64,000 nt of DNA, from IMG/VR virus record IMGVR_UViG_3300022188_000229, positions 28,896 through 92,895 of that record. One strand, 5' to 3'. Positions within the stretch are counted from its first letter, which is position 1. The number at the start of each line of letters is the position of its first letter. Below the pieces are notes generated by a model, which worked only from the letters and a program-made list of their open reading frames with translations, was not told where the DNA came from and searched no databases. The stretch comes from a virus. Below are positions 47,297-47,451 of this stretch, piece by piece. Position numbers and translations under genes: made by a program.

Positions 47297-47451
47297 CTCC
47301 TTTTTAGTTAGTATTATTTACAGTAGTTACGAGAGTACTAACTAGGAGGTCCACGAACCTAGGGGAAACTTCCTACCTACCAGTCTACTGGAGGCCCCTC
47401 TGTAGTTGGTTTCATGATAGGTTTACTACACTCTCCAATCGGTTTTCTCAT
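47297..47451 (-). promoter_or_regulatory. Leader ORF with three in-frame TAG codons and an anti-SD hairpin (putative translational attenuator)
   Basis: MRKPIGECSKPIMKPTTEGPPVDW*VGSFP*VRGPPS*. CUCCU-AGUUAGUA pairs with UACUAACU-(AAAA)-AGGAG, the SD of gene A. Confidence 0.7.

Follow-up and report, generated by a model that had tools for sequence, protein, structure and literature searches.

The window analysed here is a stretch of 64,000 nucleotides (nt) of viral DNA (IMG/VR record IMGVR_UViG_3300022188_000229, positions 28,896 to 92,895), which forms the final 64 kb of one 92.9-kb contig with phage architecture. Our subject is a short leader at 47297-47451, located in front of a small gene that we call gene A, in which in-frame amber codons (TAG) precede a pair of proline codons, and which we propose to be a translational attenuator that reports readthrough of those amber codons. 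The leader, gene A, the Pth2-like gene that follows it, a tRNA gene with the anticodon CUA (tRNA-CUA) about 600 nt downstream of the leader, and a PAS-HisKA gene all lie on the minus strand, in the following layout.

47448-48152, minus strand: PAS-HisKA gene, with Pfam matches to HisKA and PAS and no recognisable ATPase domain
47460-47465, minus strand: leader Shine-Dalgarno sequence (SD), AAGGAG, inside the 3' end of the PAS-HisKA gene and 8 nt 5' of the leader ATG
47380-47451, minus strand: upstream open reading frame (uORF) proper, read from the sequence as an ATG and 23 sense codons up to TAG1
47377-47379, minus strand: TAG1, the gate codon, at which the uORF normally ends when read with the standard code
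47362-47376, minus strand: V-G-S-F-P, five sense codons between TAG1 and TAG2, with Pro immediately before TAG2
47359-47361, minus strand: TAG2, the second in-frame gate codon, 18 nt after TAG1
47344-47355, minus strand: Arg-Gly-Pro-Pro codons CGT GGA CCT CCT, a putative arrest motif whose Pro-Pro codons are also the anti-SD sequence
47338-47340, minus strand: third in-frame TAG, one codon past Pro-Pro, not conserved
47314-47316, minus strand: TAA that closes the extended leader frame if the TAGs are read through
46990-47289, minus strand: gene A, 99 amino acids (aa), a conserved helical protein with homologs found by alignment scans and hidden Markov model (HMM)
46740-47018, minus strand: Pth2-like gene, overlapping the end of gene A, with an in-frame TAG at codon 36 (46911-46913)
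46658-46733, minus strand: tRNA with anticodon CUA, an amber suppressor, called by ARAGORN and matched by the Rfam tRNA family at 51 bits, with its start 6 nt past the stop of the Pth2-like gene

Layout and conservation of the leader

The leader ATG (47451-47449) overlaps the stop codon TGA of the PAS-HisKA gene (47450-47448), giving the ATGA coupling that had been described in an earlier, sequence-only reading of this DNA, and the in-frame TAGs that this reading placed at 47379, 47361 and 47340 are all present on the minus strand. The codons following TAG2 in the window are V-R-G-P-P-S, and the full pattern of TAG1, in-frame TAG2 and [R/K]xPP has a single occurrence in the 92.9-kb genome. The same reading had treated GPP...UAG...UAG...GPPS-UAG as one unit, and this definition did not survive comparison with 17 distinct close loci for which upstream DNA was available, obtained by alignment-based IMG/VR scans and encoding gene A proteins of 32-78% identity. 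Of these loci, no more than 4 have the third TAG (the window, L001, L012 and L011, where it lies later in frame), and the first GPP, within EGPPVDW, is confined to the window. Judged from the aligned loci, the conserved unit is uORF-TAG(-TAG)-[R/K]xPP.

Within the close set, TAG1 is invariant and the upstream ORF ends there in all 17 loci; TAG2 is likewise in frame in every locus, 15, 18, 21 or 24 nt after TAG1, and is followed 12-18 nt later, again in frame and in 17 of 17 cases, by [R/K]xPP. The motifs themselves comprise RGPP (9 loci), RDPP (3), RAPP (2), RSPP (1), KDPP (1) and KPP (1). The same search is satisfied by 0.3% of shuffled leaders and by 1.1% of the 195-mers of this genome. From TAG to Pro-Pro the reading frame is free of TAA and TGA, both of which are present in the other two frames, and the stop of the extended frame lies 6 to 75 nt after Pro-Pro in the relatives. 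TAG1 closes either a mini-ORF, 2-31 codons in length and equipped with an SD of its own, or a small acidic gene rich in Cys, and the uORF before the TAG is without a hydrophobic segment. CAA and CAG codons together number 10 in these leaders, as against 34 TAG codons, and the presence of ordinary CAA and CAG in the same leaders indicates that TAG is not simply the glutamine codon of this clade.

Examples of the acidic, Cys-rich ORF include L001:3728-3895 and L007:686-811, with others in L012, L018-L020 and L023; the ORFs of the window and of L002 end in W-TAG. In many two-TAG loci the C-terminus before TAG1 is conserved as [E/D]-W-x-[D/E]-[D/E], and this W/acidic context may be tuned for readthrough.

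A wider set was assembled by searching IMG/VR with the Pth2-like alignment, which yielded 63 loci on contigs of up to 314 kb, 46 of them with a gene A homolog directly upstream by HMM. The contigs originate from sediment and freshwater metagenomes. We then carried out a frame-aware search over 56 distinct loci encoding a gene A homolog, and found an in-frame TAG followed no more than 12 codons later by Pro-Pro, 52-88 nt before the gene A start, in 52 of the 56. As null comparisons, random windows taken from these loci satisfied the search in 2.6% of cases and other SD-ATG sites in 2 of 208, and when TGA or TAA was substituted as the gate codon, the search returned 0 of 56 loci for each. A basic residue stands ahead of Pro-Pro in all 52 loci with the pattern, where the motif counts include RGPP (17), RSPP (5), RDPP (4) and RAPP (4), and the last TAG is immediately preceded by Pro in 18 loci and by Thr in 12. 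Two gate TAGs are present in 27 of these loci and one in the remaining 25, the latter typically reading M-x-TAG-V-x-[K/R]-P-P-stop; in this one-TAG type, the segment that pairs with the SD often lies a few nucleotides past the stop, still within reach of a ribosome positioned on Pro-Pro-stop. The loci came from the alignment-based scans. A blastn search of the locus against the phage collection returned no match, and neither did single-sequence IMG/VR scans with the gene A or the PAS-HisKA protein.

Length differences between the close leaders are always multiples of 3, and the Arg of the motif is encoded by CGT, CGG or AGA. These varied codons and frame-preserving lengths, together with the basic residue ahead of Pro-Pro in all 52 pattern loci, point to selection at the level of the peptide. 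With the absence of TAA and TGA from the frame, they also argue for translation of the stretch from TAG to Pro-Pro.

Folding of the leader and modelled ribosome positions

Minimum-free-energy (MFE) folding places the ribosome-binding site (RBS) of gene A in two helices, whose parts are listed below.

47336-47348, minus strand: 5' arm of the RBS-sequestering helix in MFE folds, anti-SD CUCCU and extension AGUUAGUA
47297-47313, minus strand: 3' arm of the same helix in MFE folds, consisting of UACUAACU, an A-rich bulge and the gene A SD AGGAG (47297-47301)
47351-47356, minus strand: 5' arm of the outer helix, UCGUGG, the codons right after TAG2, whose partner CCAUGA (47286-47291) spans the start codon of gene A

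In the MFE structure of the window, CUCCUAGUUAGUA (47348-47336) pairs with UACUAACU (47313-47306) and with the SD AGGAG (47301-47297). The pairing of CUCCU, supplied by the second GPP codons, with the gene A SD had been put forward in the sequence-only reading, and it is present in this fold; the SD is not left free, with a probability of being paired, P(SD paired), of 1.00. That reading was incomplete in one respect, in that it described masking of the SD alone, when the outer helix also masks the gene A start codon (P(AUG paired) = 0.99). The same arrangement recurs among the relatives. Pairing of CCNCC with the SD was found in the MFE folds of all of the first 11 loci, and in 16 of the 17 close loci on the basis of pairing probabilities. 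For the 17 close loci the mean fold z-score against dinucleotide shuffles is -4.5, and the mean P(SD paired) and P(AUG paired) are 0.94 and 0.76, respectively.

The extension of the helix differs in sequence between loci, and its complementarity is kept. To quantify this, we compared the pairing energies of cognate and non-cognate arms over the 17 loci, with 20,000 permutations, using our own scripts. For the extension helix, cognate arms had a mean of -7.9 kcal/mol versus -2.75 kcal/mol for non-cognate arms, a mean that was reached by 0 of 20,000 permutations, and for 12 of the 17 5' arms the locus's own 3' arm ranked first. The outer helix gave -9.9 kcal/mol for cognate and -5.7 kcal/mol for non-cognate arms, and again 0 of 20,000 permutations reached the observed mean. 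Both helices therefore covary in this arm test among leaders upstream of gene A homologs. No terminator-like site was found between the leader and gene A, and a permissive Rfam scan of 43000-52000 gave no match at E <= 1 within 47290-47451.

The consequences of ribosome position were explored with a simple footprint model, in which the ribosome is an unpaired footprint and the cost is the free energy needed to expose the region from the SD through AUG+5. Exposure of the RBS in the free leader costs 11.8 kcal/mol on average over the 17 loci (8.7 kcal/mol in the window), and a ribosome with TAG1 in the A site does not lower it (13.4 kcal/mol on average, 9.5 in the window). With TAG2 in the A site the cost falls to 7.7 kcal/mol (6.0 in the window), and with the ribosome held on the two Pro codons it falls to 3.6 kcal/mol (3.4 in the window). 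In the model, termination at TAG1 would thus leave the switch closed, and a ribosome at Pro-Pro would open it.

The suppressor tRNA, the proposed mechanism and its alternatives

The window encodes 19 tRNA genes on its minus strand, one of which has the anticodon CUA. The tRNA-CUA gene lies 250-1100 nt downstream of gene A in the window, as it does in most loci whose DNA reaches that far, and it was found just downstream in 52 of the 63 Pth2-like loci. An alignment of these genes describes a class I tRNA with a normal T-loop, a usually encoded CCA and a variable discriminator base. L072 (3322 and 3403) and L084 (2819 and 4684) each carry two tRNA-CUA genes. Many phages that use the standard code carry 'orphan' amber suppressor tRNAs without a known target (e.g. 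PMC9022506), and the leader would provide such a tRNA with a concrete target, conserved among relatives, and with a mechanism that can be tested.

We consider it likely, from the comparative data and the folding model, that the leader is a translational attenuator that reports UAG readthrough, and that the operon is probably translated only when the phage tRNA-CUA overrides the stops. In the resting mRNA, the codons after TAG2 would pair with the gene A start codon, and the Pro-Pro codons (CCUCC) together with 8 nt would pair with the SD of gene A and the sequence on its 5' side, leaving both gene A and the overlapping Pth2-like gene untranslated. Under the standard code, release factor 1 (RF1) would terminate translation at TAG1, a position so far upstream that the helices would stay intact. 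With tRNA-CUA active, a fraction of the ribosomes would read both TAGs and reach RGPP, where they would stall, the P and A sites being occupied by Pro codons; a ribosome halted in this way would keep the anti-SD arm in the mRNA channel, and the gene A SD and AUG would become free for other ribosomes. With two TAGs, output would vary roughly as the square of suppression efficiency, such that background near-cognate readthrough would be filtered out, and the stall would extend the open time obtained from each readthrough event. Three steps of this scheme are ones that we infer: that tRNA-CUA decodes the leader UAGs, that in so short a context RGPP arrests the host ribosome, and, on the footprint model, that the RBS opens as a result of the stall. 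The central proposition of the sequence-only reading, that only ribosomes that pass the UAGs reach and melt the anti-SD helix and that the leader would in this way report readthrough, fits every comparative test that we ran, and is supported by sequence comparison and modelling.

Published work offers a plausible basis for the stall. RAPP and RGPP are the strongest bacterial arrest cores known, and are resistant to elongation factor P (EF-P) and tolerant of upstream context (PMC12992588; structures in PMC10951233). RDPP and RSPP are partly permissive, and all four cores are strongly depleted from proteomes (PMC12992588). The proposed stall had previously been attributed to EF-P-dependent slowing at Pro-Pro, and EF-P-resistant RAPP/RGPP arrest explains it better (PMC12992588). 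In engineered systems, several UAGs raise the on/off ratio by cutting near-cognate background, and proline contexts weaken termination (PMC6412442); both findings agree with the tandem TAGs of the leaders and with how often Pro precedes the last TAG (18 of 52 loci).

Several observations weigh against the proposed attenuator. The fold of the window is itself no more stable than shuffled sequences, with z-scores of 0.05 (191 nt) and -1.65 (TAG2 to AUG+9), and is unexceptional when taken alone; the significance comes from the comparison between loci. RNAalifold, applied to a MAFFT alignment of the 17 leaders, gave no consensus structure, a failure that we attribute to 3' arms that are out of register owing to variable loop lengths. 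With the footprint masked at Pro-Pro, the SD is still 49% paired on average, and the modelled opening is thus partial. Published arrests of the RAPP type were studied with longer nascent chains than the 8-16 residues that many of the relatives would have at the stall, and stalling might also lead to cleavage of the mRNA or to ribosome rescue, with a negative effect on expression. Finally, 4 of the 56 loci lack the TAG-PP pattern. Among the exceptions, L027, L028 and L033 are related and have, roughly 100 nt before gene A, the variant TAG-x-x-R-S-P-stop, which contains only one Pro, and L055 and L069 are without the leader device. In L027, L028 and L033, CACCG rather than CCNCC pairs with the SD, which is ACGGAG.

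The alternative that fares best is that the leader is a sensor of RF1, reading the balance between RF1 and UAG decoding, and turned on when host RF1 is depleted or inhibited in the course of infection, with or without a suppressor. A UAG gate is a competition in which low RF1 is equivalent to high suppressor activity, and the occurrence of Pro or Thr before the last TAG (30 of 52 loci) fits a context of weak termination; poly-Pro is reported to weaken termination (PMC6412442). The tight linkage to tRNA-CUA (52 of 63 loci) is, however, left unexplained by this alternative, and in the model a ribosome that waits at TAG1 with no decoder keeps the RBS closed (13.4 kcal/mol). We hold an RF1 sensor to be improbable; it is a variant of the same device, and is inseparable from it by sequence.

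The leader could also be the 3' end of an upstream ORF, in a phage that uses TAG as a sense codon, with plain translational coupling to gene A and no sensing role for the TAGs. Genes are commonly coupled by upstream translation that unfolds an RBS hairpin, TAG-recoded phages are well documented, and TAG is read as sense in the Pth2-like gene, where a Pfam match spans the TAG. The genome, however, is not recoded. Its coding fraction is 0.890 under code 11 versus 0.884 with TAG as sense, TAG terminates 18 of the 85 listed ORFs of at least 90 aa, and the long genes contain no internal TAG. These three observations indicate that the phage uses the standard code with TAG as a real stop, and sense TAGs are not distributed genome-wide or across the late genes, as they are in a TAG-reassigned (code 15) genome. 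Sites where TAG must be read through can be named with confidence only in the leader and the Pth2-like gene. In addition, TAG is fixed at the gate in 52 of 56 loci, with no exchange for the CAA and CAG that are present elsewhere in the leaders, and many loci have only M-x before the TAG, which leaves no upstream protein to couple. In view of this evidence, plain coupling is very unlikely.

A structured cis-regulatory RNA, such as a riboswitch or a protein-binding leader that is untranslated past TAG1, would account for a highly structured region with covarying helices, and for the conserved UAGG after TAG2, which is part of the outer helix. Such an element would not explain why spacings and length differences are all multiples of 3 or why Arg alternates between CGN and AGA. 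Outside the helices, only features defined by codons are conserved (the TAG and the basic residue with Pro-Pro), and the region has neither an Rfam match at E <= 1 nor a conserved unpaired pocket. The probability that we assign to this explanation is very slight. A chance occurrence of TAG triplets in an AT-rich intergenic region, with which the unremarkable fold z-score of this one sequence would agree, is ruled out by the comparative data (52 of 56 loci against nulls of 1-2.6%, TGA and TAA at 0 of 56, and a pattern unique in the genome), and we give it practically no weight.

Two further pairs of ORFs, both on the plus strand, are split only by an in-frame TAG. At 19930-20943, a methyltransferase-like ORF is joined in this way to an ORF with a phrog_5982/731 domain, and at 22829-24142 an ORF without an assigned family is joined to an HNH endonuclease ORF. 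Both were considered as readthrough fusions and were not counted as sense TAGs, the PHROG matches being on separate sides of the TAG, a pattern suggestive of separate genes; the two pairs could be fusions made by the suppressor or simply adjacent genes.

Relation to known systems, and the genes of the operon

The proposed attenuator can be compared with several well-studied classes of regulatory leader. The trpL, hisL, pheL and leuL leader attenuators sense charged tRNA through tandem codons. Like them, the present leader is short, uses the same codon more than once (in the window, two TAGs in one frame, spaced by 18 nt) and would use alternative RNA pairing to report on one decoding species. 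It would differ in sensing a suppressor tRNA against a release factor, with efficient decoding turning expression on, and in controlling the initiation of translation by sequestering the SD and AUG; the terminator/antiterminator and U-run of the trpL type are absent. A second parallel is provided by prfB, the gene for RF2, in which an autoregulatory in-frame UGA and a +1 frameshift regulate the release factor itself. Both systems have a natural, early in-frame stop that would sense the efficiency of termination. Unlike prfB, the leader has a continuous zero frame through the UAGs in all loci, with every conserved motif in that frame and no need of a frameshift, and its output would be unmasking of the RBS by a stalled ribosome.

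The putative arrest motif is related to that of the RAPP-like arrest peptides, which include ApdA, ApdP and ApcA, SecM with RAGP, and the RAPP/RGPP uORFs of Streptomyces (PMC10951233, PMC7897499, PMC10987492, PMC12992588). In these systems too, a uORF with R-[A/G/D/S]-P-P lies near the regulated gene, and the stall is thought to unmask the RBS. The window contains the core R-[A/G]-P-P in the form of RGPP, and the four core variants found here are arrest-competent or partly permissive (PMC12992588). The putative stall site and the RBS-masking helix also coincide, in that the Pro-Pro codons are the anti-SD sequence, the helices covary, and the RBS opens in the model. The known examples monitor protein export or insertion, have signal or transmembrane segments, lie upstream of sec, yidC and comparable genes and are released by pulling force. 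Unlike these monitors, the uORFs described here have 2-31 codons and no targeting signal, they precede the helical gene A and the Pth2-like gene, and their arrest motif is gated by one or two in-frame UAGs in a phage with its own suppressor tRNA.

Amber-dependent leader switches have been engineered, by placing TAG in the tna or trp leader (Liu et al. 2011) and by multiplexing TAG for gain (PMC6412442). As in the proposed attenuator, downstream expression in these switches needs translation of the leader past UAG, and several UAGs suppress the background. The engineered switches are synthetic and transcriptional (Rho/attenuation) and use orthogonal tRNA-synthetase pairs, whereas the leader would be a natural, translational device that is widespread in environmental phages. 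A eukaryotic parallel is found in AMD1, where stop-codon readthrough by near-cognate tRNAs leads to an arrest peptide 384 nt downstream and is reported to regulate translation of AMD1 itself (PMC13025110). As proposed for the leader, ribosomes that pass the stop reach an arrest sequence further along and thereby exert regulation, but in the leader the effect would be unmasking of an RBS.

Full-text searches of the literature returned no publication that describes this operon or an arrest leader gated by amber codons. We know of no earlier natural regulatory device that takes readthrough by a dedicated suppressor tRNA as its input, and if the proposed mechanism is true, this would be the first. 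It would represent a new combination of three known principles, namely tandem-codon sensing, RAPP-type arrest and SD sequestration, and would add phages, and nascent chains of very short length, to the range over which RAPP-like arrest motifs are known. Such a device bears on the ways in which phages manage stop-codon reassignment or evolve it, and at less than 160 nt would be a compact natural part for the reporting of amber suppression in synthetic biology.

Two genes would be under the control of the leader. The gene A protein gave a confident, helical AlphaFold2 (AF2) model with a predicted local distance difference test (pLDDT) score of 90.7. It has no Pfam or PHROG family, a Foldseek comparison with the PDB returned nothing at E <= 0.001, VIA-align gave generic helical matches only (Z <= 6.3), and the ESM Atlas provided no usable feature match. 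For the Pth2-like gene, the Pfam match to PTH2 (PF01981) spans the internal TAG and, at 23.4 bits (E = 7.5e-5), is barely over the cut-off of 23.0. A profile of 11 homologs matches PDB structures of peptidyl-tRNA hydrolase (E = 2.7e-5), and the protein has invariant Lys, Arg, Asp, His and Asp/Thr positions. The internal TAG occurs at the same alignment position (PDT-TAG-W) in the window, L002, L003 and L015, and is replaced in other loci by a variable sense residue (R, S, E or T); as read from the alignment, it would be a second, clade-specific readthrough gate on the same operon.

Several relatives have phage transfer-messenger RNA (tmRNA) genes within 1-2 kb of the module formed by gene A, the Pth2-like gene and tRNA-CUA, with tags that end in ALAA or AKAA. 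Four of them, L011:2041-2390, L018:4048-4433, L019:4843-5193 and L023:4202-4574, lie just past tRNA-CUA, and the tmRNA gene at L032:856 is upstream of its module. These neighbours hint at a theme of ribosome rescue or damage control when stops are read through. Because tmRNA genes adjoin the module in several relatives, our best guess for gene A and the Pth2-like protein is a role in dealing with what readthrough brings about. A broader possibility, which we hold tentatively and think somewhat unlikely, is that the leader, gene A, the Pth2-like gene and tRNA-CUA constitute a self-contained feedback module with which standard-code phages measure and set amber suppression, gene A and the Pth2-like protein acting on suppression or on its fallout (RF1, suppressor charging or rescue). 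If this were true, the module would serve as a natural sensor, and at the same time as an actuator, of a switch in genetic code in the course of infection; it may also be the evolutionary stepping-stone to fully TAG-recoded phages.

A further gene noted in this region is the following.

48943-50109, minus strand: RtcB RNA ligase gene (E = 5.8e-113)

Both the RtcB gene and the PAS-HisKA gene are embedded in the tRNA array. The translation of an ORF at 48459-48644 (minus strand) holds GSNPR, a signature typical of the tRNA T-arm, at a place where ARAGORN calls no tRNA, and 45064-45136 (minus strand) has a weak tRNA-Sec-like match in Rfam (25.5 bits, E = 0.14). These two sites may represent unusual or intron-containing tRNA genes.

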